64,000 nt of DNA from assembly GCA_021802485.1 (NCBI GenBank), contig JAJZXF010000003.1, positions 1,636-65,635 of the forward strand. Reading direction: 5' to 3'. A model generated the notes under the pieces. That model worked only from the letters and a program-made list of their open reading frames with translations, was not told the DNA's origin and ran no database searches. The translations under genes were made by a program, and so were the position numbers. This document shows, in pieces, positions 5,778 through 30,409 of the stretch. Position 1 is the stretch's first letter. Every line of letters starts with the position of its first letter. Origin of the DNA: Actinomycetes bacterium (GTDB lineage Bacteria; Actinomycetota; Acidimicrobiia; Acidimicrobiales; JAJZXF01).

Positions 5778-6044
5778 ATGGCAGAGGTGATCGGCGCACA
5801 AATCGAGCAGCTGCAACAGCTTGAGGTCACTTTCAAGAACCAGGCCGGAAATGTCGAGTCGATGACCAAGGGGATCACATCCCAGCTCGGTTCAACCCAG
5901 TGGGAAGGTCCCGCTGCAGATCGGTTCCGAAGCGCTTGGTCGGGCGAGTTCGCACCCATGCTGAACAAGCTCGTAACCGCCCTAACCGAAGCCAGCCAGG
6001 AAATCGACCGTCGTCGCAATGCCCTGATCCAGGCTGGGAGTTGA
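5778..6044 (+). CDS. WXG100-family (ESAT-6-like) type VII secretion protein
   Basis: 88-aa ORF with GTAGGAGG 6-8 nt upstream of the ATG. A central W-x-G (TQWEGPAADRF) lies between two predicted helices. Confidence 0.85.
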   Translation: MAEVIGAQIEQLQQLEVTFKNQAGNVESMTKGITSQLGSTQWEGPAADRFRSAWSGEFAPMLNKLVTALTEASQEIDRRRNALIQAGS

Positions 6045-8403: not shown

Positions 8404-8850
8404 TTGAACAATCGGAAGGACGCTACATTGCAGACACCGGTCGGGGATGCAACTGCCTTGGATCAAGCGGCAAGTACCTGTCGTCAACGGGGTAGCGAAA
8501 TCTACTCCCTCGCAAGTTCTCTAGCCAACGAGACGACGTCGCCATCATGGGTCGGCCCCAGAGCTGACCGCTTCCGCAATGACATGGGAGCCATGAAACA
8601 CAACCTTGATTCGATCGCAGCTGAACTCGAGACCCTCGCTTCGCAGTTCTTGGCATTGGCCCGTGAAGTAGAGGGGGAGATGAACCTGCTTCAAAAGATT
8701 GAACAAGACGTTCTTCAATTCATGGACTCCTTCGAACCACTTCTCGACATGCCACCGCCGCCATGGCAAGGCACCCCCTGGGGTCCGGGACATCTCCCTG
8801 GCCCGTTCGATCCCGCATGGAAAGCTGTAGCAAAGGCCTTCGGCCTGTGA
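8404..8850 (+). CDS. WXG100-like protein with C-terminal Pro/Trp-rich extension
   Basis: 148-aa ORF with a TTG start. The W-x-G (SPSWVGPRADRFRNDM) is flanked by helical segments (LDSIAAELETLASQFLALAREVEGEMNLLQKIEQ). The extra tail reads PPPPWQGTPWGPGHLPGPFDPAW. Confidence 0.7.
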   Translation: MNNRKDATLQTPVGDATALDQAASTCRQRGSEIYSLASSLANETTSPSWVGPRADRFRNDMGAMKHNLDSIAAELETLASQFLALAREVEGEMNLLQKIEQDVLQFMDSFEPLLDMPPPPWQGTPWGPGHLPGPFDPAWKAVAKAFGL

Positions 8851-8896: not shown

Positions 8897-10714
8897 ATGG
8901 CCTACTGGACCCCAACCAGCTGGGCTACCGCAGTGCTCAAGTACTTGGGCGCTCCGATCACCCAGAACAACATCGACAACATCACTCGCTGGATGCGTGC
9001 GGAAAAAGGAGCCGACTGGTTCAACCGGAACAATCCCTTGAACTCATCGGTCGGCACGGACTCCATCGACGGCACGGGTTCGTATCCGAACCTCGGTGTA
9101 GCTGCAAGGAACGTCGCGGGAATGATCAACCAGGGGAATATGAGTGGGATCAAGCAGGCACTCATGTCGAACGCACCGCTTCCCACCTTCTCTGCAGCGG
9201 TGGTCGAGTCTCCGTGGGCGAGTTCACATTACGGCGGAAACCCCTCCTACTTCACCGACGTTCCGCCCTTGCCTAACACCGAAGCGCCAGTGTCAGCAGG
9301 AACTACTGACCTCACCCCCCCCACCACGGTGGACAGCAACCCCACGACCTCAACCGGCACAGGATCGACCGGCACAGGATCGACCGGCACGGGAACCTCA
9401 GCGGGCACTTACACCGTTCAGGCAGGCAACACTCTCTGGGGTATTGCGAAGCAATACGGCATCCCAGTTGCCGCACTCATTGCGGCCAACCCGCAGATCA
9501 CCAATCCAAACCTGATCTTTCCCGGAAACGTAATCAATATTCCCCAGCAGTCCTCATCTCCCAGAACCCCGCCACCAAGACCGAAACCGGTAACCAAACC
9601 CATTACAAGACCCGGATCACGAGGTTCCGGCGGGCGGATATTCGTCGACATAAATGCAAACCTTTCAATGGCTGGGCGGATGCAGGCGCACGCCAACCAA
9701 CTCGGCGATATCCGCCTCAGCTTGCTCAGCGTCGCTTCACGGACTTCACCGCCACCACCACAGGTAAGTGGACTGCTCAATTCGCTCAACAGACTTCTAG
9801 ACCAGCTGAATACGGTCACGACCAACCTGCACGCTCAGGCAAAAGGAGTCATTGACAACGCTCGCGGTCTCGCAGCCGAAGAGCGCCACGCAACAAGCAA
9901 CTATACCAATTTGGGACACCAGATCACATGGCCTGATATGATATGGGACGTCCAGTACGCAGGCAGTGTGCCTGGCTTTCTTCGGCCCCTCTTCGAGTTT
10001 GTCGACGCGGAGCTGGCATCCCTGGTGTCACTGCCAAAGACCTCGTTCCCAAGCGTTCTGCCATTGCACACTGCACCCGTAGAGGTGCCAACGGCGCCAG
10101 TCGTTTCGTCAACGCCAGTGTCGGTCGGACCAGTCGGATCCGGTATCCTTGCCACCTCGATCGCGACCGCAGGTGTGACGGTGGCACAAGAGGAGGCGAA
10201 CTTCGCCAAGTCACAGATCTATTGGAACGGTCCTTACGGACGGGTGCTGCTCAATTCATCACAATGGCTGGGGGGCCATGGGATTGATGTGCACTCCGAC
10301 GCCGGAACGAACTATAAGGGGCATTATCAGTGCGTCACACTCGTGACGGACCTCTTCCGTGAGAGGGGTTGGATTCATGGCTCGTGGTTGGGCAACGGCA
10401 ACACCCTCCTCAATTCTCTGCCGCCTGGAGTAACGAAACAGCTCAACGGCCACATCACCCATCTCGTCCCCGGAGATGCAGTAAGCATGCAGGTCGCACA
10501 TGACGGTGTAACGGACCAATACGGGCACGCCGTTGTGGTTAACCAGATCATCAAGTGCTCCAACGGCTACATGGTGCAGTTCGTCAATCAGAATTCACCA
10601 ACCGTCTACACCTACGGCACGCTGAGTCCTTCCGGAGTTCTGACCATGAACCCCTCAGGCTCCTGGTCCTACGACATTATTGGTGTGGCACACGCCACCG
10701 CCAACACGGGCTAA
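8897..10714 (+). CDS. LysM + CHAP domain peptidoglycan hydrolase without recognisable signal peptide
   Basis: 605-aa ORF, 46 nt after the WXG-like gene. LysM: YTVQAGNTLWGIAKQYGIPVAALIAANPQITNPNLIFPGNVINIP. C-terminal CHAP-like domain has a Cys in HYQCVTLVTDLF and a His in YGHAVVVNQI. The N-terminal 130 aa is unassigned (NNPLNSS motif). A helical middle segment is present. The N-terminus MAYWTPTSWATAV is not Sec/Tat-like. Confidence 0.8.
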   Translation: MAYWTPTSWATAVLKYLGAPITQNNIDNITRWMRAEKGADWFNRNNPLNSSVGTDSIDGTGSYPNLGVAARNVAGMINQGNMSGIKQALMSNAPLPTFSAAVVESPWASSHYGGNPSYFTDVPPLPNTEAPVSAGTTDLTPPTTVDSNPTTSTGTGSTGTGSTGTGTSAGTYTVQAGNTLWGIAKQYGIPVAALIAANPQITNPNLIFPGNVINIPQQSSSPRTPPPRPKPVTKPITRPGSRGSGGRIFVDINANLSMAGRMQAHANQLGDIRLSLLSVASRTSPPPPQVSGLLNSLNRLLDQLNTVTTNLHAQAKGVIDNARGLAAEERHATSNYTNLGHQITWPDMIWDVQYAGSVPGFLRPLFEFVDAELASLVSLPKTSFPSVLPLHTAPVEVPTAPVVSSTPVSVGPVGSGILATSIATAGVTVAQEEANFAKSQIYWNGPYGRVLLNSSQWLGGHGIDVHSDAGTNYKGHYQCVTLVTDLFRERGWIHGSWLGNGNTLLNSLPPGVTKQLNGHITHLVPGDAVSMQVAHDGVTDQYGHAVVVNQIIKCSNGYMVQFVNQNSPTVYTYGTLSPSGVLTMNPSGSWSYDIIGVAHATANTG

Positions 10715-15993: not shown

Positions 15994-18900
15994 TCAGCGA
16001 GCCACCTGAACGAGGCTTACCCCGGAACGTTGCGCAAGGTATCCGCGCCCTGGGGGAAACCGCACAGTAGAACGCCGGGGGAACCGCACGCCGAACAGGT
16101 CGCCATCGACATCCACATCCGGCATGATCACCAAGCCGTGCTTGGCCTTTCGCATCTCAGACAGCCACCCTGCGTACGCGCGGTGCGCTCTATGGGTCTG
16201 GCAGGCGGCACAGATAATCGTCGTCTGCTCCCGGGTCTTTCGGACCAGCTTCTCGAGATGGTCAGCGACGGGTCCTTCCAACAGCTCCTCTGCATCGTCG
16301 ATGATCACCACTGTGGGAGCTACGCTTGAACCCTGCGACGAAGCCACCATGTCCAGCACCGCCGCGTAAACCTCGTCCTGGCCGCTTGCTATCGATGTCC
16401 AGGTATCCAGGGCAGTCAGCGGCGTCCTGCGCGGCGCAAGCAGCACCATCGGTCCTTCCCGGAAGGCTGCCCTCAGACCCCGGGCCAGCGTCGCAAGAGC
16501 GACTGATCGCCCGGATCCATCCGGGCCGCAGATGAGAAAGGTAGGGTTCTCATCTAGACGCACCGCCATGGGGCGGAGATCCGCGCCGTCGATAGCAAAG
16601 GGGATCCTGCGCATGGCAGAAACAGGCGCGGGGAGGACGTCCGCTGGTATATCATCGCCCAATACCTCCACCGAAGGTGCCCGCTGCCCGTCGGAAGCAC
16701 TCAAGGCAGCGCCAAGCTTCTTGATGCATTCAACCTGGGCTCTGCCTGAGGCGTCGTCTCCGAGCACTGCCACATGGATCTCCGCCCCGCTGGAGAGGAA
16801 GCCTCTCCCTGGCGGGAGATCGGCATCGCCCACGTTCCGCAGGCCAAGCCACTGGTACTCATCAGCGTCCCCCATGCGCAAGATCACCCGGCCTGGTATC
16901 GAAGCAAGAAGCCGGTTCGGCACGCCGCCCCTGCGGTCCACGCTGATCACGAGGTGGACCCCGACAGACGATCCGTCTGCTGCGATCTGGGCCAGCCGAT
17001 CGATCTGCGCTCCAGCATCAAGATCGCCGAACACATCCACAAAACCGCTGTAGCCGTCGAGCAGGAGGACCACCCACGGGCTACGCTGTCCCTCCGGTTG
17101 CCCGGAGCGGAGCTCCATGAACGAGCCCGCTGCTGCGCTCCCAAGTGCAACCTGGCGCTCGGCCACGATACGCTCCAACAGAGCGAGGATACGTTCAGCT
17201 CGCTCGATGTCGCTCGCCGTCGCGACTCCGCCGCACTGGGGCAGGGCCTCGATCGCCTGAAGCCCGCGAGTAGCGAAGTCCAGGCCGTACAGATTGAGAT
17301 CCGAGGCGCTCCATCGCTCGGAGAGCCCGGCCGCAATTGTCCGCAAGAGCGTGGTCTTGCCCGAACCTCCCGTGCCAAACACCAACAAGTGGCCCAACTC
17401 GTCAAAGTCGAGCACCAACGGATCCTGGCTCTGACTCTCAGGCCTGTCCACAACCCCAGCTACCGTCGAGAGCCGCTCCCTTGGAATGGACTCGCTCGCA
17501 AGTGTCGCTAGCGAGTAGCTCGTAGCGAGCGGATCCAGCCACGGACGTCGTGGCAAGCTCGACCCGGATGCGCTCCAGGCCTCGCACACCGCAGCCACCA
17601 ACCGTTGCAAATCGCTTTCACCGGAACGATCCGCCTCCGATTTCGGCCAGCTGATTGGCGAGGGTCCGAACGCAATGGGTCGCACGTTGACAACCGGCTC
17701 GCTCCCCGCCTCGCTACGGCGCCCTCCGACATAGGCGACCTGCACCGGGTGAATGTCGCTGCCCGAACGTATGAACGCACGGCCTACGAGGTCGTCTGGA
17801 ATGCGAGCCGCATCTGGGACAGTCAGGATGTCTACCGACTCCTGGTCGTCGTGAAAGCGCAAGGAGATCCGCACCGGGACGTTCGTGCGTATCTTATCGT
17901 CGATAATGCCCGCTGGGCGCTGGGTAGCGAGCACCAGATGTACCCCGAGTGAGCGCCCACGAGCTGCGATGTCGACCACACCGTCAACAAATTCCGGGAC
18001 GCTTGTCTTCAAGAACGCAAACTCATCAAAGACAAGCAACAACGAGGGTGGTGCATGTTCTGGATCACCCTGCTCGAAGTCGATGAGGTTCTTGTACCCC
18101 GCGGCAGCGAGGAGATGCTCCCGACGGCGAACCTCTGCCTCCAAGGACTCGAGCGCGCGCCTCGCAAGATGGCCGTCGAGGTCGGTAAAGTACCCCGTGA
18201 CATGAGGCAGCTCGGTGCACTCCTTGAAAGCCGCTCCGCCCTTGTAGTCGATGAGTACGAACGTGAGGCGCTCCGGCGGATGGGAAGCTGCAAGCGCGGC
18301 AACGAACGTCTGCAAGAGCTCGCTCTTGCCAGCCCCAGTTGTTCCACCCACCAGCATGTGTGGTCCTTCTCGCTGGAGATCGAGCACTTGTGGGCCATCA
18401 GCGTTAACACCAATGATCCCGGGAAGACCAATGCGCGATCGGGCCCACCGGCTCGCGATACCCTCTGGGGTTGGGTCCTCTAGCGCGAGAAGTTCAAGCA
18501 GGTTGACCTGGCGCGGGAGCTCGCTGCCACGACCGCCCGCAGTCACATCACGGAGCGGCGCCAGTGCCAAGGCTACCTTCTCAACCAGGCGCACTGGCAC
18601 CAAATCGGCGAGGATCCCGTTTATGGTCACCCCTTCACGCACCTGGACCAGTGACAGCTCCCCCGCATTTTCGGGCGTCGATGACAGGGTCACGAAATGC
18701 GTGCACTCCCCCGGCAGTGACCTGACCGCTTCAGACACGACCAGTGCGGTCACTCCAACCGCTGGGCCTGACTCGAGAACCCGGGAGAGCATCGGCCGGG
18801 AAAGCTCCATGTCTCCGGCTATTACGAGAAGGACGTGAGGCATATGCCTGGACTTTCCAGCGCCGAAGCCCCCTCCAGCCGGTTCCTGACGCGTCCGCAC

Positions 18901-20376
18901 TACTTCGTCGACAAGACCCAATAGGTAGTGATGATCTTCAGCGCTCGTAGAGACAGTTGACGCCGATGGCAGGAGCACCGACGTGTGGGGCATCCATGCG
19001 AGGAACTGCCACGCTGCCTCTCGCTGTGCTGGCACCAGTGCGACTATTGCGAGATCACGCGGGCTGTGAAGGCATGCCGCTCCAAGAATCAGGCTCCGGG
19101 CAAGCGCGCTGCTGTCGTCATCTGGTCCCGAAATCCCGAGAACACCTTCGCCCAATGGCACGGTTACCGGCACCGACGGGTCGATCTTGTGATCGTCCTG
19201 GATCGCATCCAACGGGCCAGGTGGGCGGTCTGGGTCAGGTGGCTGCGCTCCATCGAATCTGAGCCTGGCAGGACGGTCCGCGAGACCGACCCGTAAGCGA
19301 AGAAAGTCATCATCCGTACCTCGACGCTCCCAGAGTGGCTGCTCGAGGCGTATCGCCCGCTGTGCGAGATCCGCTGGCCCGGGGGCCGCTGAGCGTTGAA
19401 CCTGCAGGTCCCAAAGGTGAGCCTCATCTGCACTGGTACGAACTCGTTCAACCTGGCGGGCGAACCGGGTCATCGCCTTCTTGTGAGCTGACTTGCCACT
19501 CCGGCGGTCGCTCACCACCGAGATAACCGCCATGACGGGAGATAGGACAGCGAACATAAGGAACATAGCGTTGTGGGCCACCTCTGCTATCACCACGCCG
19601 AGCGCAAGAGGGATCAAAGCGGTAAGGATTGGCAGCCGCGCCTTGGTGGGTGGCTTCGGGGGGACTGGAAGCGATATGACCGGGGGATCCGATGGAGGCA
19701 CTGCGCGCGGCGGACGATTGACCAGCAGCCTCCCGTCCTGGTAAGAGGGCGCGAGTAGTGCAGGGACCGGCGAAGGCCGCACCGTGAGCAACGACCCACC
19801 GAGGTTCGCCACAGCGCCAGGAGACAAGGCAGTTGGCTCTGTGCCGATCGGACGTCCTTCAACTGCTGTCCCATTCGTTGAGCCCATATCAGAGATCCAT
19901 ATCTGATCCCCCCTCAACTGGAGCGAGGCGTGAACTGACGAGATCGACGGGTCGGGCACTAGGATCGTCGCTTGATCTCCTCGACCGATCGTGACTGGAC
20001 GGTCACTGAGATCGAGATCGTAGACAATGCCAGCGCAGGGTCCGCTCTCTACGAGTAGCTGCCACGATCCTCGCGTTGCGAGCGGGTGGCCCGCAACCTC
20101 TGGCGCAAGTGAGGCACGGGAGGCCGTAAGGATGTCACCATCTCGAAGTTCGAGATCCGCGAGCGGCGTATCAGCTTGAAGCTGCGCCCCGCTACGGCGT
20201 ACGCAAAGCGGCCCGTTCACCTCAGAGCGGCCGATGACCCGGGTTAGCGAGTCCATCAACTGCCCAGCAGTCGCCCTGCGATCGTAGGCGACTGCCACAG
20301 GCACAGCCGTACTCGGACCATCGGTCTCAACCAAGATCGACACTTCGACATGGTCCGAGATGTTGGAAGTAGTCAC
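15994..20376 (-). CDS. FtsK/SpoIIIE-family type VII secretion ATPase (EssC/EccC-like) with N-terminal ubiquitin-like and FHA domains
   Basis: 1460-aa ORF with a GTG start. aa 9-86 look YukD/ubiquitin-like (VEVSILVETDG ... LADLELRDGDILT). aa 104-200 are FHA (VTIGRGDQATILVPDPSISSVHASLQLRGDQIWISDMGSTNGT). Two TM segments lie at aa 247-290. Three P-loops: GGTTGAGKS (677-685), GTGGSGKT (1001-1008), GPDGSGRS (1283-1290). Walker B-like motifs: LLLVFDEF, VVLLLDGY, VVIIDDAEE. Confidence 0.9.
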   Translation of the reverse strand: MTTSNISDHVEVSILVETDGPSTAVPVAVAYDRRATAGQLMDSLTRVIGRSEVNGPLCVRRSGAQLQADTPLADLELRDGDILTASRASLAPEVAGHPLATRGSWQLLVESGPCAGIVYDLDLSDRPVTIGRGDQATILVPDPSISSVHASLQLRGDQIWISDMGSTNGTAVEGRPIGTEPTALSPGAVANLGGSLLTVRPSPVPALLAPSYQDGRLLVNRPPRAVPPSDPPVISLPVPPKPPTKARLPILTALIPLALGVVIAEVAHNAMFLMFAVLSPVMAVISVVSDRRSGKSAHKKAMTRFARQVERVRTSADEAHLWDLQVQRSAAPGPADLAQRAIRLEQPLWERRGTDDDFLRLRVGLADRPARLRFDGAQPPDPDRPPGPLDAIQDDHKIDPSVPVTVPLGEGVLGISGPDDDSSALARSLILGAACLHSPRDLAIVALVPAQREAAWQFLAWMPHTSVLLPSASTVSTSAEDHHYLLGLVDEVVRTRQEPAGGGFGAGKSRHMPHVLLVIAGDMELSRPMLSRVLESGPAVGVTALVVSEAVRSLPGECTHFVTLSSTPENAGELSLVQVREGVTINGILADLVPVRLVEKVALALAPLRDVTAGGRGSELPRQVNLLELLALEDPTPEGIASRWARSRIGLPGIIGVNADGPQVLDLQREGPHMLVGGTTGAGKSELLQTFVAALAASHPPERLTFVLIDYKGGAAFKECTELPHVTGYFTDLDGHLARRALESLEAEVRRREHLLAAAGYKNLIDFEQGDPEHAPPSLLLVFDEFAFLKTSVPEFVDGVVDIAARGRSLGVHLVLATQRPAGIIDDKIRTNVPVRISLRFHDDQESVDILTVPDAARIPDDLVGRAFIRSGSDIHPVQVAYVGGRRSEAGSEPVVNVRPIAFGPSPISWPKSEADRSGESDLQRLVAAVCEAWSASGSSLPRRPWLDPLATSYSLATLASESIPRERLSTVAGVVDRPESQSQDPLVLDFDELGHLLVFGTGGSGKTTLLRTIAAGLSERWSASDLNLYGLDFATRGLQAIEALPQCGGVATASDIERAERILALLERIVAERQVALGSAAAGSFMELRSGQPEGQRSPWVVLLLDGYSGFVDVFGDLDAGAQIDRLAQIAADGSSVGVHLVISVDRRGGVPNRLLASIPGRVILRMGDADEYQWLGLRNVGDADLPPGRGFLSSGAEIHVAVLGDDASGRAQVECIKKLGAALSASDGQRAPSVEVLGDDIPADVLPAPVSAMRRIPFAIDGADLRPMAVRLDENPTFLICGPDGSGRSVALATLARGLRAAFREGPMVLLAPRRTPLTALDTWTSIASGQDEVYAAVLDMVASSQGSSVAPTVVIIDDAEELLEGPVADHLEKLVRKTREQTTIICAACQTHRAHRAYAGWLSEMRKAKHGLVIMPDVDVDGDLFGVRFPRRSTVRFPPGRGYLAQRSGVSLVQVAR

Positions 20377-20927
20377 GATACCACTCCGTCCCTGTGCGCC
20401 TGACGCTCGCTGTAGGCGGCCCTCAGCGCCCTCAGCGCCCTGTACGTTAGCGCCCGGACGGCGTCTTCATTCGAGTCGAGCACCACAGCGGTCTCCGCCA
20501 CGGTCAGCTCCTGGAGAAAACGCAGTTCAATCACACTCCTCTGTCGTGTTGGCAGGGACGCCAAGACGCTGAGCGCCTCCGCAATCCGACCCCGGCTATA
20601 CTGCGCCTCACCGTCTTGGCCGCTCTCGATCAAAGAGTCGGCCACCAGCAATCGCTCATCAAGAGGAATCAACTCGGGTCGCCTGCGGCGGCTTTCACCT
20701 ACAACCAAGTTGTATGCGATCCTAAAGAGCCATGCTCGCTCAGGAAGGCCTCGATCCTCGTAGCGGCTGTAGGCCGCAAACGCACGACAGAACGTCTCCG
20801 CGGTGAGATCCTGGGCCGCCTGGGCTCCGACCCTACGACACAGGAACCCAAAGACGCCGTCAACGTTCTCGCGGTAGATCGCATCGAATGCGACATTGCC
20901 CACACGCTCAGCGCCCACGAGCCTCAT
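20373..20927 (-). CDS. ECF-type sigma-70 family RNA polymerase sigma factor
   Basis: 184-aa ORF. Region 2 (ERAWLFRIAYNLVV) and region 4 HTH (LPTRQRSVIELRFLQELTVAETAVVLDSNEDAVRALTYRALRALR). Its stop overlaps the ATPase GTG start (GTGA at 20373-20376). Confidence 0.9.
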   Translation of the reverse strand: MRLVGAERVGNVAFDAIYRENVDGVFGFLCRRVGAQAAQDLTAETFCRAFAAYSRYEDRGLPERAWLFRIAYNLVVGESRRRRPELIPLDERLLVADSLIESGQDGEAQYSRGRIAEALSVLASLPTRQRSVIELRFLQELTVAETAVVLDSNEDAVRALTYRALRALRAAYSERQAHRDGVVS

Positions 20928-21158: not shown

Positions 21159-22919
21159 ATGTACTCCATGACAGACAACTCAGCTGGCCAGGGCGATCTC
21201 GTGATCCCAGGATACCGGGACTTCAGTCTGCTCGGTCGCGGAGCATCGAGCACCGTTTACCGCTGCCACGACGAGGAGCTGAACAGATGGGTCGCTGTGA
21301 AGGTGTTCCTTGCGGACGATCCAGAGGATCCTGCGCGAAAGCGCTTCCGCAGAGAGCGTGAGATAACAGCGAACCTCGGCAAGCATCCACACATCGTCCA
21401 GGTGCTCGGTACCGGCTTTTCTGCTGGTGGCCTTCCCTATGTGGTGATGGAGTTATTCGAGCAGGGCTCGATCGCGGACCGCATCCAAGCTGCTGGAGCG
21501 TTCTCGGTCACAGACACGATAGACATCGGTGCAAAGATCGCAGATGCTCTGTGCGCGGCACATAAAGCAGGAGTGCTTCATCGTGACATCAAGCCACAGA
21601 ACATCCTGCTCTCAGAGTACGGACCAGCTCTCGCAGACTTCGGCATCGCTCGCTCGGCTACGAACCTCGAGTGGTCCCAGAGCCTCGAGCAGCTGACGCC
21701 GTGGCATGCAGCACCCGAGATTCTCTCAGGTGGTCCGCCAACACAAGAAGCTGACGTGTACGCTCTCGGCTCTACCCTTTATGCCATGCTCGCTGGGCGA
21801 CCTGCGTTTGCCGGTGCACCTGGAGAGTCGCTGCTTCGCTACCAGGTGAGAGCAACCGAGGAGCCGCTGCCACCACTCGCCCGTAGCGATGTCTCGCCTG
21901 AGCTGTTCGCAGTACTCGCTACAGCTATGGCAAAGGACCCGAGAGATCGCTACCGGTCCTCTGCTGACCTGCGAGATGCACTTCGGAGCCTGACCAGCGT
22001 TGCTGCAACAGCGCAAGGCTCCCCACAGAGCCCATGGGCGCCGAAAGCATCTACGCCTACACGACAGACCAGTGACTTGTCGCCAACATGGTCCAAGGAT
22101 GCGCCATTGTTTTCGGATACCCAACAACCTGCAGACCCACAAGCCCCTACCTTGCGAGATGCGCAAACTATCTTACGCAGCTCAGCAATGCGGGAACGAA
22201 CCACACCATCGGCGAAAGAGCCTTCGAACAGCACAATCGAGCGCGCTGTCGCAGGCGCCTCGCTCGAAGACAATCGCTCAGGCCCGCAGCCAGAGCTCAC
22301 ACACCAGCTGCAACCGAACCCCGAAGCCCGCTCCCCTCATTCACCCATCACAGCATCTATCCCTCTCGATCTCCAAGCTGATGGCTCAAAGACGATCACA
22401 AGGACCCATAGTTACACCTCAGCAGAGGAAGAACTACAGCCACAAACACAGAAGAAGCACCTGCGCATCGGAATCCTTGTCGCTACAGCAGCGGTGCTCG
22501 TCGCAGCTATAGCAGTGGTAGTGGTAGCTGGTTCGAGCCAGCGTGCCCCGAAGGTGATCAAGGTGTCAACCCAGCAGACCATCCCTGTCGAGACCTCAGC
22601 AGCTCCTGTCTCGCTGCATGCGACGACCTCTCCTAACGGCAGTTCAGTTGAGCTGCAATGGACGACTGGGAGCGTTCCTCCAGACGGCTACGTAGTCTTG
22701 AAGGTGCCAGGCGGTAATGCGACACCATCGCTCGTGCATCCGGGACCGAGCGCATCCGCGACCCTGTTCAACGTCGGTGGGCTGGACCCAACCACCTCCT
22801 ACTGCTTCATCGTGATCGCGCTTGTCGGCAGTCACGATGCCGAGGCGCCGTCGTGTGCCTGCATCCGCGGCGCCACCCTTTCGCCCCAGCACGTATTCCC
22901 GCATCTAAGCTGCTCTTGA
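21159..22919 (+). CDS. Transmembrane Ser/Thr protein kinase (Hanks type) with extracellular FN3-like domain
   Basis: Inside ORF 20616..22919, whose 5-prime 300 nt are antisense to the sigma gene and were rejected. Start ATG at 21159 (or 21168). Kinase motifs: GRGASSTVY, VAVKV, HRDIKPQNILL, DFGIA, HAAPE. TM segment: LRIGILVATAAVLVAAIAVVVVAG. Confidence 0.85.
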   Translation: MYSMTDNSAGQGDLVIPGYRDFSLLGRGASSTVYRCHDEELNRWVAVKVFLADDPEDPARKRFRREREITANLGKHPHIVQVLGTGFSAGGLPYVVMELFEQGSIADRIQAAGAFSVTDTIDIGAKIADALCAAHKAGVLHRDIKPQNILLSEYGPALADFGIARSATNLEWSQSLEQLTPWHAAPEILSGGPPTQEADVYALGSTLYAMLAGRPAFAGAPGESLLRYQVRATEEPLPPLARSDVSPELFAVLATAMAKDPRDRYRSSADLRDALRSLTSVAATAQGSPQSPWAPKASTPTRQTSDLSPTWSKDAPLFSDTQQPADPQAPTLRDAQTILRSSAMRERTTPSAKEPSNSTIERAVAGASLEDNRSGPQPELTHQLQPNPEARSPHSPITASIPLDLQADGSKTITRTHSYTSAEEELQPQTQKKHLRIGILVATAAVLVAAIAVVVVAGSSQRAPKVIKVSTQQTIPVETSAAPVSLHATTSPNGSSVELQWTTGSVPPDGYVVLKVPGGNATPSLVHPGPSASATLFNVGGLDPTTSYCFIVIALVGSHDAEAPSCACIRGATLSPQHVFPHLSCS

Positions 22920-23026: not shown

Positions 23027-25288
23027 CTAGCGTTGAAGCACGGTTCGAATATCGATCGCACGAATGAAGCGACCCCGCCGCCCGAGCGCTGATGCCGCTA
23101 CTAGCCCAACGCTGTCAGCATGCCGCCATGCCTCGAGCGCCGCGTCATCGTCAGGCTCCCACTGAGAGAATGTCGCTGCATTGACCATCCGGGCAATAGG
23201 CTCGAGATCCGCAACAGACTCTCTTCCAAGACACATTTCACCAACCGCCACCAACTCTGTGGCAGTTCGAGACTGGTCACGCGCAACTCCAAGCGACCTG
23301 ATCTGATCGATCGACTCAAGCCATGCGCCAATCACGCGTCCTTTCGCTGAAGTTGCCCCACGTCGCAACCGGCGTCGCCGGCGGCGTAGGAGAGCCACCA
23401 CTCCAGCTAGCAGGCCGAGCACGACCGCGACGAGAACGAGCACAGCACCAATCACGATCGCGACGAGAACCAGGCGGTTCAACTGTTTCGGGGCAACCAC
23501 ATGAGGGACCGGCCCCTGGACTATGTGCTGCGAACTCCCCCCGGGGACTGGGCTCGTTATAGCGCTCGAATGACCCTTCACCCTCTCGTCCGGTGGAGGC
23601 TTCACGTTCCCAGGGCGGCGCGTCGGATCAAACGCGACCCAACCCAAACCCGCGAAGTCAATCTCCGCCCCAGCGTAAGCATCCCGAGTAGTCACTTGCC
23701 ACCGGTTCCCACCCAATCGCGTACCTGAATGGAATCCCACGTACACCCGTGCAGGGAGACCAAGCGACTCAGCCAAGAGCGCGAACGCAGATGCGAACTG
23801 CTCTGAGGTACCGCGTTTGGAGCCCGTATGGGTCCCGTACAAGAAGTGCTCCATCACCCGGATGTTGGTACCCGAAGGCGCCTTTGGGTCAAATGTGTAC
23901 AGGCTCGTATTGTGCAACGCATTCTCTAGGTCCTGCGCCTGCTCGCATGGCGTCACAGCCCCTTGAGTGAGTCGTTGCGCCAACTTCTCGATCTGCGACG
24001 GCAATGTGATGGTCCGCCCAGGGAGCACGTTCTTGGTCGCACAGTTCGGCGTGTTTGCCGTGGTCGCTGACCGCAGGGTATACCTGGAGCCGGATGCGTG
24101 ACCGGAGGCCGCGACCAGGACTCCTGTTCGAAGATCAGCTAGAGCTGAAAGACCCTGGATCTTGCTCGCACGCCCGTCGGTGGGTAGCCATGGGCCAGGT
24201 AGGGACTTGATCGAGAACTTCTGGACAAGATCCACCATTGGCACCTTGCTGGATCGATGAGCACTGCCGGGCGGGCCTGCTGGTACGACATCGCCAATGC
24301 GCTCGAAACGCGACGTGCTCGTCCAACCGAGGAGATCGCTATAGCTGGACAGATATGCCAGCCGGAACGACGGCGGATTCACGCTCGATGACGTGACGGT
24401 GAAGAGAACCTTTGGCTTGGCCTGCGCCCACTTGCTCAGCTCGTCCAACGGGTTGATCGCCTGTACCGGCTTGGTTGGCGGGATCCAGCCCGCCCGTGGA
24501 TCATACGCATGGCCAGATGCGAGCACCGGCATGGACGGGCCAGCTAGCAGTGCGATCACGACCGCAACAATCGTGCAAAGGCATGCCTCCAGCAATCGAC
24601 GAAGGGTGACCTTTCTATGATCTGAATGTGCTGCCTCAACAACCGGCGATGCGGTAGCGCCCGCGAGCACCAGAACGACAACAACGAAAATCATCACAGG
24701 TACCGACCGCTCTACGCCAGCGCCGATACCAAACGGCAGCGCTACCAGCAACGCGGCCACCGCCGGGATCGTTGCGACCATAGGGTAGCGGGTTCGCTGC
24801 ACGATCTCCGTTCCGAGAGCCGCTGCGATCCACACCACTATGCACGGGAGCACGAGCATGTCCACCGGACCGGTAGCAGGCAGAGGCACAGAAAGTATCT
24901 GTGCCCAGGCGTCCACGATCCCGCGATATACGCCCGAAAACGTCGCGGGACTCGGAATGATCGAGAGCACCGTAGTGTGGAGCACCGCGACCGCCACGAA
25001 CCAGTAGAACGCCACCACTGACACCGCTGCAGGCAGAGCAACGCCGCGACCTCGACGCTGGCCAATTGCGTATGCGATCCCGGCGGGGATAAGCGTCGAC
25101 AGGATAACCGGGACACCAATTGCCGCCCAACCAAAGACTCGGATCCACTCTGATGCAGCGATACCGACGAGGATCGTGATTCCTGTGACGCTAAGTCCCG
25201 TGCCCAGTCGCCCCCTATTGCCTCGAGCTGATCGAGCGCCCGAGCTTTCAGTTGCTTGGTCGTTCACAGCGCAGCCGCCGCGTTCCAC
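23027..25288 (-). CDS. Polytopic transglutaminase-like (TgpA-type) membrane protein with substituted catalytic residues
   Basis: 753-aa ORF. An alternative GTG at 25267 gives a GTGA overlap with the DUF58 stop. Has multiple N-terminal TM segments. The core GTSEQFASAFALLAESLGLPARVYVGF ... RDAYAGAEIDFAGLGWVAFDPT resembles the TGase core, but has Ser495 where Cys is expected and Tyr538 where His is expected. Confidence 0.75.
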   Translation of the reverse strand: MERGGCAVNDQATESSGARSARGNRGRLGTGLSVTGITILVGIAASEWIRVFGWAAIGVPVILSTLIPAGIAYAIGQRRGRGVALPAAVSVVAFYWFVAVAVLHTTVLSIIPSPATFSGVYRGIVDAWAQILSVPLPATGPVDMLVLPCIVVWIAAALGTEIVQRTRYPMVATIPAVAALLVALPFGIGAGVERSVPVMIFVVVVLVLAGATASPVVEAAHSDHRKVTLRRLLEACLCTIVAVVIALLAGPSMPVLASGHAYDPRAGWIPPTKPVQAINPLDELSKWAQAKPKVLFTVTSSSVNPPSFRLAYLSSYSDLLGWTSTSRFERIGDVVPAGPPGSAHRSSKVPMVDLVQKFSIKSLPGPWLPTDGRASKIQGLSALADLRTGVLVAASGHASGSRYTLRSATTANTPNCATKNVLPGRTITLPSQIEKLAQRLTQGAVTPCEQAQDLENALHNTSLYTFDPKAPSGTNIRVMEHFLYGTHTGSKRGTSEQFASAFALLAESLGLPARVYVGFHSGTRLGGNRWQVTTRDAYAGAEIDFAGLGWVAFDPTRRPGNVKPPPDERVKGHSSAITSPVPGGSSQHIVQGPVPHVVAPKQLNRLVLVAIVIGAVLVLVAVVLGLLAGVVALLRRRRRRLRRGATSAKGRVIGAWLESIDQIRSLGVARDQSRTATELVAVGEMCLGRESVADLEPIARMVNAATFSQWEPDDDAALEAWRHADSVGLVAASALGRRGRFIRAIDIRTVLQR

Positions 25289-26418
25289 ATCTCGGCAAAT
25301 CCCGAACCAGTAGCGCTTCGAAGCACTGTGACGTTCGCTGGTGCATCGCAGCGGACCTGATCCGCGTTCGAGGAGATGATCCCGATGATCTCGGTGTCGA
25401 AACGCTTGCCAAGAGCTGCTATCGAATCGAGCTGGCTGCTCGCTGGCACTCCGGTGATCACCACCAGCACATCGCCGCGACGCTCACTCGCAAGTCCATG
25501 CACCAGCTCTTGAATCGACGCTTCAGGGCCAAGTTGCACTGCCGCCAGGCAGTCGAGTAGCTCTACCGCGTCTGGCGCCATTCCCCTTCCCGTCGCGCCT
25601 TGACCCCCTGGGGTCAGCAGCCGCACGGGGAAACGCCCATCCGTAGCGGCAACAGCGACGGATGCTGCAGCCTCGACAGCCTCTTCGAAAAGCTCAGGCG
25701 AGCCTTGGTAACTTTCTGCGGACGTGTCTAACACCAAGGTGACCAGCGGCAAGCTCGTGTCGACGTGTTCTCGGACCATAAGCGTGCCGAGCCTTGCGGA
25801 CGACTTCCAGTGAACGTGACGGAGATCATCCCCGACTACGTACTCTCTAAGGGTGTGGAACGTCACGCTGCCCTGGGGTATCTTGTCTGCATCGGGACCG
25901 TCAAGGCTGCGGGTCCTGCCAACGGGAAGTCCACGAACGACGTGGGTCACCGGATGAACCCAGAAACGCTCGATCGAACCGACTCGCTGGGTCGTGCGCC
26001 ATAGCCCGAACGGGTCCTGGCGAGTGACGACAAGCGGGCCCACGTCTATCACCGCTCGATGATCCGTTGGCAGCCGGTATGTCGTACGCGTAGCGGCACC
26101 TGGAGCAAGCCGGGGTATCTCCACCGAGATCGCGCCTGGACCAAACTGCTCAACGGCGATCGTCGGCGACACGGCAAGCTTTGAGGGATTACCGATGGAG
26201 AGCAGACCGAGTGCCAGCTTTCCCCTGGTCACCTTGTTCGGCTCGATGCTCCGCTCGATCCGCAGGCGAGGCCGGCGCAGCACCCAACCAAAGCCCGCGA
26301 CGAACACAACCACTCCTGCTGTCACCACGATGTCTACTTCTCGGTAGTGAACAAACGATCCGAAGATGAACAGCACCACCAGGCCCGCAGCGACACCCAG
26401 ACCGCGGAGCGTCAGCAC
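25264..26418 (-). CDS. DUF58 domain protein
   Basis: 384-aa ORF with two N-terminal TM segments. Hallmark sequence: LREYVVGDDLRHVHWKSSARLGTLMVRE. Confidence 0.9.
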   Translation of the reverse strand: MLTLRGLGVAAGLVVLFIFGSFVHYREVDIVVTAGVVVFVAGFGWVLRRPRLRIERSIEPNKVTRGKLALGLLSIGNPSKLAVSPTIAVEQFGPGAISVEIPRLAPGAATRTTYRLPTDHRAVIDVGPLVVTRQDPFGLWRTTQRVGSIERFWVHPVTHVVRGLPVGRTRSLDGPDADKIPQGSVTFHTLREYVVGDDLRHVHWKSSARLGTLMVREHVDTSLPLVTLVLDTSAESYQGSPELFEEAVEAAASVAVAATDGRFPVRLLTPGGQGATGRGMAPDAVELLDCLAAVQLGPEASIQELVHGLASERRGDVLVVITGVPASSQLDSIAALGKRFDTEIIGIISSNADQVRCDAPANVTVLRSATGSGFAEMWNAAAAL

Positions 26419-26425
26419 GGCTTGC

Positions 26426-27430
26426 TCAGACCGTCTGTGGAATAGGACTTGGCACAGCGTCCAAGACCCGCCCGATCAGCGACTGAGGGGTCACACCACG
26501 CAGCTCGGCCTCAGGCTGGAGGATGAGACGATGGGAAAGCACGCTCTCGGCAAGTCCCTTCACATCCTCTGGCACCGCGTAGCTGCGACCGGACAGCGCA
26601 GCAAGCGCCCTCGCTGCTCGTAGCAACGCTATCGAACCGCGCGGACTTACCCCAAGGCGGATCTCTGGAAGCACCCTCGTCGCAGCCCCGATCGCGATGA
26701 TGTAGTCGTGCAGTGCATCCGCGACGTGAACCCGCGACGTCTCTGTGATCATCTGCGAAACCCGATCAGTCGAGAGCACGGGAGGAAGGTCAGTGAGGAC
26801 CTTGCCGTCCAAATGATTGACGAGAATGGCCCGTTCCGCGTCCGCGTCTGGATAACCGACACTCACCCGCATGAGGAAGCGATCCAGCTGGGCCTCGGGT
26901 AACCGGTAGGTTCCGTCCATCTCAATTGGATTCTGCGTAGCTACAACGATGAACGGTCGCGGAACCGGATGGGGCACGGAGTCGACCGTGACCTGGCGTT
27001 CCTCCATCACCTCGAGCAGTGCAGACTGGGTCTTCGGCGACGCGCGGTTGATCTCGTCCGCGACCACAATGTTCGCGAACACCCCCCCTGGGTGGAACTC
27101 AAAGGTACGCGATCCCTGGTTGAAGATGGTCACACCTGTCACATCAGATGGGAGCAGGTCCGGGGTGAACTGGATGCGCCGCCAGGAGCCATGGATCGAT
27201 GCGGACAGAGCGCGGGCAAGCGACGTCTTTCCGAGACCCGGAACGTCCTCGATCAGCAGATGCCCTTCAGCAAAGAAACAAGTGAGCGCCAGCTTGATAA
27301 CCTCAGGCTTGCCCTTGATAACCGTGGCAATATTCGCGGCCAAGCGGTTCGCATCGCCCGCAAGCGACCCCGGATCGCGAGCCTCTTTGCCTATCGCTGA
27401 CGAGACAGGCTGCTGTTGCGATCTACTCAT
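26426..27430 (-). CDS. MoxR-family AAA+ ATPase
   Basis: 334-aa ORF. Walker A: VPGLGKTSLARAL. Walker B and sensor: ADEINRASPKTQSALLEVMEERQVTV. Confidence 0.95.
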   Translation of the reverse strand: MSRSQQQPVSSAIGKEARDPGSLAGDANRLAANIATVIKGKPEVIKLALTCFFAEGHLLIEDVPGLGKTSLARALSASIHGSWRRIQFTPDLLPSDVTGVTIFNQGSRTFEFHPGGVFANIVVADEINRASPKTQSALLEVMEERQVTVDSVPHPVPRPFIVVATQNPIEMDGTYRLPEAQLDRFLMRVSVGYPDADAERAILVNHLDGKVLTDLPPVLSTDRVSQMITETSRVHVADALHDYIIAIGAATRVLPEIRLGVSPRGSIALLRAARALAALSGRSYAVPEDVKGLAESVLSHRLILQPEAELRGVTPQSLIGRVLDAVPSPIPQTV

Positions 27431-27484
27431 TTTTCCACTCCTCGTGGCCTTTTCATCAACGTTTGTGGATTCAAACTCGTGGAT

Positions 27485-30409
27485 TCAAAATTGAACGGTA
27501 TTGCTCGTTGCGCTCTTCCCGCCAGCAGACACGACAAGATATACCTTCACGCCAATCGCAGCGCAGCCGTCCTCGGGATGCCCAGTGGGCGGTGCCCAAC
27601 TGGCAGATCCGCTGGCGTTCGTAGAGTACCAAGCTGAAAAGCCCCCAGACCCTGGATTGACCCAAAACTGACTGGGATCGTAACAGGTGAATGTGATGGA
27701 CGAATTGGCTGGGAAGTGTGACACGACCACGTTGACCCAGTGGCATCCAGAACACCCCGGCATTGTTGAGCCATTGGAGTCGGTAGTGCTGTTGCCAACG
27801 CTGATAGTCACAGAGGGAGCAGGGGGGCATGCAGCCGTCGTCGCGCTAGCGCTCCCCGGAGCACTGGAATTGCCACCAGCATTCACAGCCACGACGGAGA
27901 GTGAGTGGCTCTGAGAACAGCTGAAGGTCTGTGTATATGAGTTGCCAACAACCGAACTCGCACCGCCTCCATCAACTGAGACGTTGTAGCTCGTGATCGA
28001 GCTTCCAGGATCGCTCGGAGTGGTCCATGTCCACGTGATCGAGTTGCCGTTTGCTGACGCAGCCACGACCGGAGTGCCCGGCGCTCCAAATGGTGTCGCT
28101 GGAGCAGCTGACGGCACCTGTGACGCGGGTGTGCACCCGAGCACATTGCAGGCTGCGACGCTCACTGTGTAGGCAGTGCCGTTCGTCAATCCTGACAGAC
28201 TCGCGGAGTAGCTCGATTGTCCTGTTGCCGCGGCGATCGTTGTGGTTGCGATAGTCGCCGGGCTGATCGAGACCTTGAAGCTAGTGACGTCGCTCCCCCC
28301 TGAACATGTTGGATCGCTTGGATTGCACGTCCATCCTACGCTGAGCTGCCCTGATCCGTTTGGCGTAGCGGTCAATCCTGTGACCGCGCCCGGTGGCTCC
28401 TGAGCGGTAACCGGATTCGACGCGTTTGACGGAAGGCTCGTCTTGTTGAGGTTGTTATCGGAGACAACGCTGAACGTATAGGTCTGGCCGAGCTGTATGC
28501 TTCCATTTTGAGAACTCACCTTGACCTGAGTCGAGGAGCCGGAGACCTTCACGTTCGCTGCCCCAGTAGCTCCAGTTCCCGACGTCGCGGCACCAGTATC
28601 GGTTATCAGCACTTCATAGGCCGTGATCCGATGCCCCTGACCATTAGCCGGATTCCAGCTGACGCTGATCGTGCCGTCATTATTAGACGACGCCGTCACC
28701 TGCGTGGGTGCGCTCGGCACTGCACTTGACGGTGTCGCATTGACCGCAGTAGACGCAGCGCTCGTGCCGACCGAGTTGGATGCAGCGACTGTAAATGCAT
28801 ACTTCGTGCCGTTGGTAAGCCCCTTCACGGTAAACGGGCTCGACCGCACCACCTTGGTCCCACTCGACCCATTGCCCGAAACGACTTTCCATACGACTGG
28901 ATAGCCGGTGATGGGGCTGCCACCGTTCGCAGAACCAGACCACGACAACGTGACGGCACGGTTACCAGCGAACGCAGTAACACTGGTCGGGGCAGTCGGG
29001 GCCTTTGGCGGCACGATCACGGTTGATGTCGGCGCTGGGGCAACACGCGTTGGAGCTGGGTTCGTGGGGTTCGCTGGAGTCGGAGCTGGCGGCGGGGGGG
29101 GTGGAGGTGGCAGTGTGATCCGCGGCGGGACGACGTTGGATATTGCAGCCGGATTGCCCTTATTGATCTCGTGGACGGCGCCTGTCGGGTTAACGACGAT
29201 TGCGTTGTTCCCGTCTGGCTGGTTCACCCATAGGTAGCCACCCTGCAGCGAGATGTGGATCGGGCCGTGTTTCCAGGGGAGGCCGATGGGAGCTGACGCC
29301 ACGTTCCCCTGGTCATCGAGGACTACGAGCTTGTGTCTGGTGAGATCGGGGACATAAACCCTCCCGTTGTAGACCTGCGGAGTGCCAAGGAGATCCTGGG
29401 GCCCGATTCCTGGAGGCTGGATCGGCGAGCTGACAGACGATACGGTCGCATTCCCCGACAGGTGAACGAGCACGACCTGGCCACTTCCCGACTCCGCTAC
29501 CGGAACAGTGCTGCCGGTCACAATCTTCGGGATTAGAACAGACTGAGCGGACTGCCTGGAAAGAGATGGGATGTGCGCAAGCGAACCGCGCGCGCCACCA
29601 GGTGCTGTGATGAACGTCCCGTTGTGGAGATCCAAAACAGCTGGCGAGTTGTCCACAAGCGAGATCGCAAGCTGCGCAGCGGCGGTCTTACGCGGCACTA
29701 CCCGGCCGCCCTTGCCAGTTCGAAGATGGCCCGAAGATACGGTTGCTGAGACCAATGACCCAGTCGCGGCGTCCACCACCCATAGTCGGCCCGTGGAACT
29801 CACGACGCCAGCAGTGAGAGTGCCATGGATATCGGTCCTCCCCAATACCCTCGTAGAGACAGGGTCAAGAGCCTCGATGGTACCCTCCTTGCGGTGGATG
29901 ATGAACACCGCGTTGGAGGCGTCTTCGACGTCGACGTTCCTTGATCGAGCGTTGCCCGCAACCCGGCGGTTGTCTTCAATCTTGAAAGCGCTCAGATTCA
30001 AGCTGCCAACGGTCCCTGCCGTCCGATCCCACAATACAGCGTTTTCCCCGGCCTGGAGGACCTCGAGGCGATGTCCCTTGGCCCCTTTGACAAGGAGCTC
30101 GAGATCAACCTTGCTAGTGGAGCCATTCGCCAGGAGAATTGCGCCGTTGCTGCTATTGCTCAACCAGCCATGTCCATCGAGGAGATTCAAAAGACTAGCG
30201 TGCTGGGCGGTCCCGAGAGCAGCAGCGAGCGTCGCTGCAAGCATGGCAACCACTACACCGAGCGCTATGAACGCATGTGAACCGCGCCTATCGGTCCGCC
30301 TTGCCAGGACTTCGGCAAGCGTGTTCCGCAACTGCACAAGTCTCCTCATCGAGTCGCGCTCACCATCGACACTCCCCATCGAGCCCCATCTCACGGACAC
30401 CACCGCCAC
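27485..30409 (-). CDS. Membrane-anchored surface protein with poly-Pro linker and multiple fibronectin type III-like domains
   Basis: 974-aa ORF with a single TM (FIALGVVVAMLAATLAAAL). An N-terminal region of about 400 aa is followed by PPPPPPPPAPTPANPTNP. At least 5 FN3-like units (e.g. PTSVTAFAGNRAVTLSWSGSANGGSPITGYPVVW) and a Cys-rich C-terminal domain follow. First gene of the MoxR/DUF58/TGase string. Confidence 0.8.
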   Translation of the reverse strand: MAVVSVRWGSMGSVDGERDSMRRLVQLRNTLAEVLARRTDRRGSHAFIALGVVVAMLAATLAAALGTAQHASLLNLLDGHGWLSNSSNGAILLANGSTSKVDLELLVKGAKGHRLEVLQAGENAVLWDRTAGTVGSLNLSAFKIEDNRRVAGNARSRNVDVEDASNAVFIIHRKEGTIEALDPVSTRVLGRTDIHGTLTAGVVSSTGRLWVVDAATGSLVSATVSSGHLRTGKGGRVVPRKTAAAQLAISLVDNSPAVLDLHNGTFITAPGGARGSLAHIPSLSRQSAQSVLIPKIVTGSTVPVAESGSGQVVLVHLSGNATVSSVSSPIQPPGIGPQDLLGTPQVYNGRVYVPDLTRHKLVVLDDQGNVASAPIGLPWKHGPIHISLQGGYLWVNQPDGNNAIVVNPTGAVHEINKGNPAAISNVVPPRITLPPPPPPPPAPTPANPTNPAPTRVAPAPTSTVIVPPKAPTAPTSVTAFAGNRAVTLSWSGSANGGSPITGYPVVWKVVSGNGSSGTKVVRSSPFTVKGLTNGTKYAFTVAASNSVGTSAASTAVNATPSSAVPSAPTQVTASSNNDGTISVSWNPANGQGHRITAYEVLITDTGAATSGTGATGAANVKVSGSSTQVKVSSQNGSIQLGQTYTFSVVSDNNLNKTSLPSNASNPVTAQEPPGAVTGLTATPNGSGQLSVGWTCNPSDPTCSGGSDVTSFKVSISPATIATTTIAAATGQSSYSASLSGLTNGTAYTVSVAACNVLGCTPASQVPSAAPATPFGAPGTPVVAASANGNSITWTWTTPSDPGSSITSYNVSVDGGGASSVVGNSYTQTFSCSQSHSLSVVAVNAGGNSSAPGSASATTAACPPAPSVTISVGNSTTDSNGSTMPGCSGCHWVNVVVSHFPANSSITFTCYDPSQFWVNPGSGGFSAWYSTNASGSASWAPPTGHPEDGCAAIGVKVYLVVSAGGKSATSNTVQF

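Follow-up and report, generated by a model that had tools for sequence, protein, structure and literature searches.

The 64,000 nucleotides (nt) analysed here (hereafter the window) lie on contig JAJZXF010000003.1 of assembly GCA_021802485.1, a metagenome-assembled genome deposited as an Actinomycetes bacterium and placed by GTDB in the Acidimicrobiales. Their reverse strand encodes an extracytoplasmic function (ECF) sigma factor of 184 amino acids (aa; 20373..20927) and, immediately downstream, an ATPase of 1460 aa (15994..20376, GTG start) of the EccC/EssC type that drives type VII secretion systems (T7SSs). This ATPase carries a ubiquitin-like (Ubl) domain, an FHA domain, two transmembrane (TM) helices and three FtsK/SpoIIIE P-loop domains. 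Its architecture and its kinase and MoxR neighbourhood fit T7SSd and the Esr-Esx pathways, which were described in 2024–2026, and are thus already known. As far as was found, what is new is a well-delimited clade of ECF sigma factors whose genes are fixed directly upstream of an FHA-EccC gene across deeply diverged Acidimicrobiia-like genomes. A full-text literature search for the sigma/FHA-EccC combination returned nothing relevant; the association does not appear in the T7SS and Esr papers searched, and the article that re-classified the ECF sigma factors makes no mention, in its main text, of FtsK, FHA, WXG or type VII contexts (PMC7826278).

Conservation of the sigma-ATPase gene pair

The sigma protein possesses regions sigma-2 and sigma-4 (Pfam Sigma70_r2 and Sigma70_r4 were matched, Sigma70_r3 was not), which makes it ECF-type, and it scores above the cut-off of the NCBIfam sigma70-ECF superfamily (TIGR02937, 58.7 bits vs 42.9). 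Its sigma-2.2 motif (AAQDLTAETF in the window, xAEDLTAETF as the clade consensus) keeps the acidic residues. The stop codon (TGA) of its gene and the start codon (GTG) of the ATPase gene share a GTGA at 20373..20376 on the reverse strand; the bases were read directly and confirm the overlap reported in the original prediction. This overlap is a junction for translational coupling, and a Shine-Dalgarno-like GGAG precedes the GTG by 7 nt. The same junction shows a 4 nt overlap in the 80%-identical relative L173, as given by the called gene coordinates and not by the bases. The original prediction had also seen no anti-sigma gene nearby, and indeed no anti-sigma Pfam domain was found among the neighbours of the pair in the window.

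A sigma factor was considered an ortholog when its score against the window sigma was 110 bits or more or, where no phmmer score was available, when its identity in BLASTP or tblastn was at least 47%. In each of the 11 distinct loci that carry such an ortholog, the next gene downstream encodes an ATPase with an FHA domain and three FtsK domains. The two genes overlap by 4 nt in the window and L173, by 14 nt in L001/L002 and by 1 nt in L085 and L087, and they are separated by 2 nt in L084, 29 nt in L088, 65 nt in L089, about 85 nt in L090, 92 nt in L172 and 245 nt in L091. This adjacency holds across ATPases whose identity falls to about 44%. Outside the orthologs it disappears: among the matches listed, none of the 78 metagenome loci with sigma relatives of at most 90 bits has the ATPase gene at position +1, and two relatives scoring 98–102 bits have no ATPase neighbour either. 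The co-occurrence check proposed with the original prediction therefore came out in favour of a real association, the pair being adjacent in 11 of 11 ortholog loci and in none of the roughly 80 loci with distant relatives. Taken from the side of the ATPase, no window-type sigma gene lies directly upstream in 80 ATPase loci from GTDB genomes, where this slot is usually taken by a kinase gene or by a MoxR-DUF58-TgpA module. The pairing of sigma and ATPase is not an accident of the window genome.

Neighbour-joining groups the sigma-linked ATPases into a single clade. Nested within it is a group of three (L003, L086 and L004) that lacks the sigma gene wherever the upstream region is visible, the upstream side of L004 ending at a contig edge; in L003 and L086, a kinase gene precedes the ATPase gene in place of the sigma gene. 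This distribution would fit one gain of the sigma gene followed by one loss. The ATPases of the nested sigma-less subclade show no obvious change. Seventy ATPase positions are specific to the sigma-linked clade; they are spread over the whole protein with no cluster in the N-terminus, and most of them are common to the nested sigma-less members. A sigma-specific signature in the ATPase was rejected, as these positions are scattered and mostly kept in proteins that have lost the sigma partner. No canonical anti-sigma gene is conserved across the 11 sigma-linked loci.

Two of these loci have particular arrangements upstream. In L088 (7307-8573), two tandem ECF sigma genes precede the ATPase gene. 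In L085 (1-1133), the stop codon of a MoxR gene overlaps the start of the sigma gene, so that MoxR, sigma and ATPase genes appear to form one operon there.

Architecture and spread of the ATPase

The C-terminal part of the ATPase matches Pfam FtsK_SpoIIIE (E=5.4e-58) and contains a third P-loop region in addition. Three tandem P-loop domains thus follow the TM helices, as expected of an EccC/EssC-type protein. The first, D1 (17737..18429, reverse strand), has a Walker A motif GTTGAGKS at aa 678 and a Walker B motif LLLVFDE at aa 779, and, of the three domains, is the likeliest to be catalytic. D2 (16777..17454, reverse strand) has a Walker A motif GTGGSGKT at aa 1001 and a Walker B motif VVLLLDG that lacks the catalytic Glu, while D3 (15997..16599, reverse strand) has a degenerate Walker A motif (GPDGSGRS, aa 1284). 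Upstream of these, a Kyte-Doolittle scan places two adjacent TM helices at aa 245-291 (19504..19644, reverse strand). The NCBIfam scores put the protein between EssC and EccC: it exceeds the cut-off of the EccCb domain (358.8 bits vs 346.55) and stays under those of EssC (541.6 bits vs 778.4) and EccCa (346.5 bits vs 509.15).

The N-terminal part was modelled with AlphaFold2 (AF2) from a 21-sequence family alignment, and the model of aa 1-250 shows two confident domains joined by a disordered linker. The first is a ubiquitin-like (beta-grasp) domain at aa 9-87 (20116..20352, reverse strand). A separate AF2 model of aa 1-92 reached a predicted local distance difference test score (pLDDT) of 86.9 and a predicted template modelling score (pTM) of 0.75, and its secondary structure, beta-beta-alpha-beta-beta-3(10)-beta, is the beta-grasp pattern. 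Foldseek searches with this model gave SUMO, ubiquitin and ISG15 as the best matches (E~3e-6, TMt 0.7-0.75), and a family profile of the region matched ubiquitin-like chains of the PDB at E=6.5e-6. Pfam YukD scores 20 bits on this region vs a cut-off of 27 and matches four of the 21 family members, with a best E of 1.2e-5. Membership of Pfam YukD was dropped on account of this score below the gathering threshold; the Ubl assignment consequently relies on the structure prediction and on the profile search against the PDB.

The second is an FHA domain at about aa 103-201 (19774..20070, reverse strand), matched by Pfam FHA at aa 128-193 (E=3.9e-15). The corresponding part of the AF2 model superposes on the phosphothreonine-dependent FHA domains of GarA and OdhI (TMt 0.84-0.90), and the phosphothreonine-binding residues (GR...SxxH...NG) are intact. 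The ubiquitin-like fold of the N-terminus, the single FHA domain and the two TM helices followed by three P-loop domains, all of which the original prediction had proposed, are upheld by these results.

The rarity that it had attached to this combination does not stand. A search of 5.8 billion proteins returned at least 412 relatives of the ATPase at E<=1e-20, and a scan of GTDB, with each species represented by one genome, returned at least 588 related genome stretches. The same layout, at about 1450 aa, occurs in Actinomadura, Streptomyces, Actinoallomurus, Frankiaceae, Acidimicrobiia and Dormibacteria. The architecture is common across Actinomycetota and already described, and is no rare hybrid of features normally split between systems: there are hundreds of relatives of the same layout, and both the FHA domain of TsdC and fusions of EsrG with EccC have been published. 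FHA-bearing EccC-like ATPases are common in Actinomycetota, contrary to the claim that the FHA domain is atypical of actinobacterial EccC. The Ubl profile matches the N-terminus of 73 of the 87 full or near-full ATPases of the family, nearly all of them without this sigma gene. The phosphothreonine-binding residues of the FHA domain are kept in about half of the family, and the GR/SxxH/NG signature is invariant in the eight sigma-linked ATPases of the alignment, window included. In the family alignment (window aa 131-170), members of the Streptomyces, Actinacidiphila and Actinomadura type have these residues replaced (GS...P/A...A), which suggests that phospho-control has been lost in them.

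Neighbouring genes of the T7SS and Esr types

The window holds several genes related to T7SSs and their control that the original prediction had missed: WXG100, WXG-like, weakly EspG-like, Hanks kinase and MoxR-DUF58-transglutaminase-fn3 genes. A WXG100 (EsxA-like) protein of 88 aa with the motif TQWEGP is encoded at 5778..6044 on the forward strand (PF06013, 35.9 bits vs 27.3). WXG100 orthologs are found in most loci of the family, so that the ATPases are linked to WXG100 substrate genes. A WXG-like protein of 148 aa (8404..8850, forward strand) has the motif SWVGP and a sub-threshold WXG100 score (19.3 bits); it is kept in L001, L084, L087, L088 and L089 and is probably a partner or an adaptor of the WXG100 protein. 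Between them, an accessory protein of 297 aa is encoded on the reverse strand (7443..8336). This protein has no Pfam or PDB sequence match of its own and is weakly EspG-like by BLASTP to a neighbour of the L086 ATPase gene (E=4e-6), a protein of 280 aa that matches Pfam ESX-1_EspG; orthologs are found in L001, L084 and L085. With genes for WXG100 substrates, for a kinase and for a weakly EspG-like protein, the locus is not short of T7SS parts, and the suggestion of a minimal or divergent machine is not supported. The Pfam scan covered 47 predicted open reading frames (ORFs) of the window, a few ORFs of about 90-125 aa being left out, and in these 47 no match was found to EccB, EccD, EccE or MycP and none to EssA, EssB or EsaA, in line with the original prediction.

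A Hanks-type Ser/Thr kinase (Pkinase E=1.5e-44) that has a single TM helix and an fn3 domain outside the cell is encoded at 21159..22919 on the forward strand, divergently from the sigma gene. The longest ORF of this frame begins at 20616 and would run antisense to 312 nt of the sigma gene, and the kinase domain begins only at residue 201 of that ORF. Translation probably starts at 21159 or 21168, which would leave about 230 nt between the two divergent genes. A kinase gene adjoins the ATPase gene in many loci of the family.

Beyond the kinase gene, an Esr-like sensing module occupies 23027..30409 on the reverse strand, as assigned by Pfam and TM prediction. It encodes a TgpA transglutaminase (23027-25288), a DUF58 protein (25264-26418), which we take to be vWA-related, a MoxR AAA+ ATPase (26426-27430; AAA_3 E=6.5e-62) and a membrane-anchored fn3-repeat protein of 974 aa (27485-30409). 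The latter has at least four fn3 repeats and an N-terminal TM helix; no C-terminal TM helix was detected in it. Of the 80 GTDB loci, many have a kinase gene, the MoxR-DUF58-TgpA genes or both beside the ATPase gene, as do sigma-linked loci.

On the other side of the ATPase gene, a LysM-domain protein of 605 aa (8897..10714, forward strand; LysM E=3.2e-15) is probably a cell-wall hydrolase. In relatives, it is encoded directly beyond the ATPase gene; its L001 ortholog has a weak CHAP match, and CHAP proteins occupy this place in L084 and L088. Genes for LysM and/or CHAP hydrolases repeatedly face the 3' end of the ATPase gene in convergent orientation (window; L084, 8170-9147; L088, 13020-13886), an arrangement reminiscent of EssH, a hydrolase dedicated to T7SSb (PMC13059805). 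In the window, two Cys/Ser-rich repeat proteins of 738 and 707 aa are encoded between the ATPase and LysM genes (13241-15457 and 11127-13250, reverse strand). The GC content of 11127-15457 (0.563) is lower than that of the flanks, and the gene order of the window is otherwise that of L001, a 67%-identical relative in which the two repeat proteins are lacking at this position; this indicates that they are an insertion. The N-terminus of the 707 aa protein resembles a signal peptide, and its C-terminal part carries six repeats, each of about 40 aa (GYWTVASDGGIFSYG...), with a propeller-like look. A homolog (E=3e-83) is encoded directly upstream of the ATPase gene in L037, and a fragment lies between the kinase and sigma genes in L001. 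The two repeat proteins may be variable sensor or target proteins.

Two further regions of the window stand apart. An rve-family integrase (46905-48449) is followed by two paralogs of about 720-770 aa (48802-50970 and 51603-53921) with weak L24e/CSD-like matches; with its lower GC content (0.54-0.55), the region 46905-53921 probably represents a mobile island. An SMC/AAA_23-type ATPase (37607-39805), an unannotated gene of 288 codons (39889-40755) and a PIN_2 protein (41184-41618) may together form a defence or toxin-antitoxin cluster.

A sigma factor proposed for a phospho-regulated Esx system

Two recently described systems come close to the window locus. In T7SSd, the partner of the kinase TsdD is the ATPase TsdC, whose FHA domain has a conserved phosphothreonine site (PMC11217815). 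The window ATPase resembles TsdC, as the latter is described, in being an EccC/EssC-type ATPase whose N-terminal FHA domain keeps the phosphothreonine consensus (PMC11217815). Likewise, the FHA ATPase of the window is accompanied by a Ser/Thr kinase and a WXG100 protein, and neither EccB, EccD, EccE and MycP nor EssA, EssB and EsaA were recognized. An ATPase from Bifidobacteriaceae (L068) falls inside the family of the window ATPase in the tblastn survey and the tree; the Ubl profile missed this protein, the N-terminal sequence of which is beta-grasp-like by eye. The systems also differ. T7SSd was reported without a ubiquitin-like component (PMC11217815), whereas the window ATPase has a fused Ubl domain, and the window ATPase gene is preceded by an ECF sigma gene. 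The 'missing' ubiquitin-like component of T7SSd (TsxB) may be fused in cis to the ATPase.

The Esr (epibiont sensing and response) pathway serves to sense threats and comprises a surface sensor, a MoxR protein, a vWA protein, a transglutaminase, a kinase, a phosphatase and the FHA output protein EsrG (PMC13622651). The sensor EsrA is a surface filament with Ig-like repeats and a beta-propeller, and EsrF is the phosphatase (PMC13622651). EsrG is usually a separate protein; the pathway often adjoins esx genes, and EsrG-EccC fusions occur in numerous instances (PMC13622651). In Esr2, the control of Esx substrate export is post-translational (PMC13622651). The window has the same set near its esx genes, namely MoxR, a vWA-type DUF58 protein, a transglutaminase, a Ser/Thr kinase and a surface repeat protein, with the FHA output domain fused to EccC, and phospho-control of Esx is proposed in both cases. 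One difference lies in the host: Esr was reported from Schaalia and other Actinomycetes, and the Acidimicrobiales genome of the window is outside this range. The main text of the Esr preprint makes no mention of a sigma factor (PMC13622651).

The other T7SSs are more distant. In T7SSb, the ubiquitin-like protein YukD binds YukB, the EssC homolog, and promotes assembly (PMC12637312), and the window ATPase shares with EssC/YukB the gathering of a ubiquitin-like module, FHA and an FtsK-type triple ATPase in one machine. However, the Ubl of T7SSb is a separate protein, and its ATPase has two FHA domains that lack the phosphothreonine residues and bind the pseudokinase EssB/YukC (PMC12637312), whereas the window ATPase has its Ubl fused and a single, intact FHA domain. 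The tandem, site-less FHA domains that characterize T7SSb are lacking in the window ATPase, and EssA, EssB and EsaA gave no match in the scanned ORFs. Regarding T7SSa, the EccB, EccD, EccE and MycP that accompany EccC were not found among the scanned ORFs and may be encoded elsewhere in the genome.

Control of a secretion system by an ECF sigma factor has precedents in SigM and ESX-4 of mycobacteria (PMC13491425) and in PknS and EcfK, which act with a type VI secretion system (T6SS) in Xanthomonas (PMC13147305). In both cases, as proposed here, a dedicated ECF sigma turns on a specialised secretion system, and EcfK acts downstream of a Hanks kinase. EcfK differs from the window sigma in being of the ECF43 type with a non-acidic sigma-2.2 region, whereas the window sigma keeps the acidic motif. 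In contrast to these two, the window sigma gene holds a constant place, position -1, in front of the ATPase gene. The sigM gene is not known to be adjacent to eccC4, and SigM has its own anti-sigma.

Taken as a whole, these comparisons make it probable, with some reservation, that the locus encodes an Esx/T7SS of the FHA-EccC kind, T7SSd-like and Esr-linked, with the ECF sigma as its transcriptional arm. The domain architecture, the gene neighbourhood and the strict pairing of sigma and ATPase genes are established by the analysis; the signal flow, the sigma regulon and any restraint of sigma activity are what we infer, as follows. The motor would be the EccC/EssC-type ATPase, carrying a YukD-like Ubl domain and a phosphothreonine-binding FHA domain in cis. 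The surface module (fn3 protein, MoxR, DUF58 and transglutaminase) would activate the neighbouring membrane-bound Hanks kinase. The FHA domain would read the resulting threonine phosphorylation and gate either the assembly of the secretion machine or the choice of substrates. The ECF sigma, whose gene is translationally coupled to that of the ATPase, would most likely drive its own sigma-eccC operon and probably also the esx substrate genes, so that the motor would be made only upon induction. The most economical reading of the pair is most likely that of a dedicated activator co-transcribed with the motor under its control.

Several points weigh against this model. Upstream of eight sigma genes, no shared ECF promoter was found: the best -35/-10 dyad occurs in four of the eight sequences, and shuffled sequences reach a maximum of 4-5. 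A shared sigma promoter was rejected, the best dyad being no better than those of shuffled sequences. A three-way sequence footprint of the window, L173 and L001 revealed blocks conserved between the window and L173, with no recognisable ECF promoter. As a consequence of this lack of a shared motif, autoregulation and the regulon are unproven. A kinase lies within the covered flanks of three of the 11 sigma-linked loci (window, L001 and L089), and the window gave no match to a PP2C phosphatase, the equivalent of EsrF. A regulator of sigma activity was likewise not found, a gap that an anti-sigma role of the ATPase would fill. Finally, according to its published survey, the Esr pathway is essentially confined to the class Actinomycetes and is not reported from Acidimicrobiia (PMC13622651).

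The original prediction had proposed that the ATPase itself sequesters the sigma factor. In this scheme, the Ubl-FHA N-terminus or the juxtamembrane region would hold the sigma factor at the membrane until it is freed by kinase phosphorylation of a target or by substrate engagement, and transcription would thereby be tied to the state of secretion or of threat. The ATPase gene is strictly at position +1, with overlap or near-abutment in six loci (-4, -4, -14, -1, -1 and +2 nt), and nothing else that is conserved in the 11 loci is an anti-sigma candidate. With TM helices that come after a cytoplasmic N-terminus, the ATPase has the topology of a membrane anti-sigma, and a conserved TM protein encoded at +1 is what the ECF field uses to designate putative anti-sigmas (PMC7826278). 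The route from Esr/EsrG phosphorylation to transcription, which such a protein could provide, is stated to be unknown (PMC13622651). However, the gaps of +29 to +245 nt in L088, L089, L090, L091 and L172 show that coupling is not obligatory. Furthermore, class I anti-sigma domains are helical bundles, often with an HxxxCxxC motif, whereas Pfam, AF2 and Foldseek revealed no anti-sigma fold at the ATPase N-terminus, which consists of a beta-grasp and an FHA domain and has no zf-HC2 or RsdA-type match. The presence of the Ubl domain in ATPases that nearly all lack a sigma partner, the retention of the FHA residues in about half of these ATPases, and the scatter of clade-specific residues, mostly common to the nested sigma-less members, also argue against a role dedicated to the sigma factor. 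Moreover, YukD binds the ATPase and so promotes T7SSb assembly (PMC12637312), which would give the Ubl-FHA region a sufficient role without any sigma factor. An anti-sigma function of the ATPase therefore appears unlikely. Its more specific form, in which the Ubl-FHA N-terminus is a phospho-switchable membrane tether for the co-translated sigma factor, freed by kinase signalling or by engagement of the machine, is doubtful.

Alternatively, the sigma factor could need no anti-sigma and be activated through direct Ser/Thr phosphorylation by the adjacent Hanks kinase, in an ECF43-like manner (EcfP/PknT, EcfK/PknS). In the window, the genes of the kinase and the sigma factor are divergent neighbours, and a kinase gene is also found in L001 and L089; in addition, kinase-associated ECF groups are typically devoid of anti-sigmas (PMC7826278), and PknS and EcfK do control a secretion system (PMC13147305). 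The hallmark of ECF43 is the loss of the acidic DxxD of sigma-2.2, which is replaced by a conserved Thr (QTTA) (PMC13147305). The clade of the window sigma keeps the acidic motif (xAEDLTAETF) and does not have this QTTA, and an ECF43-like phospho-activation was rejected on this motif. As the kinase is, moreover, not seen in the flanks of most sigma-linked loci, activation of the sigma factor by direct phosphorylation is improbable. That the pairing merely reflects shared transcription, the sigma factor running an unrelated regulon with an anti-sigma encoded elsewhere, is very improbable: no promoter motif ties the sigma factor to the esx genes, and contigs that are fragments of metagenome-assembled genomes leave room for distant partners, but adjacency in 11 of 11 loci despite ATPase identities that fall to about 44% and rearranged flanks is hard to explain without a functional tie.

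The favoured reading is that of a dedicated activator for a phospho-regulated Esx system. The sigma/FHA-EccC pair is a concrete candidate for the step of the Esr pathway that leads from phosphorylation of an FHA protein to transcription. If the ATPase were the anti-sigma, it would represent a new class of regulator, one that ties gene expression to a secretion motor. If its N-terminus were indeed a phospho-switchable tether, the pair would link Esr-type threat sensing, FHA phosphorylation and transcription.

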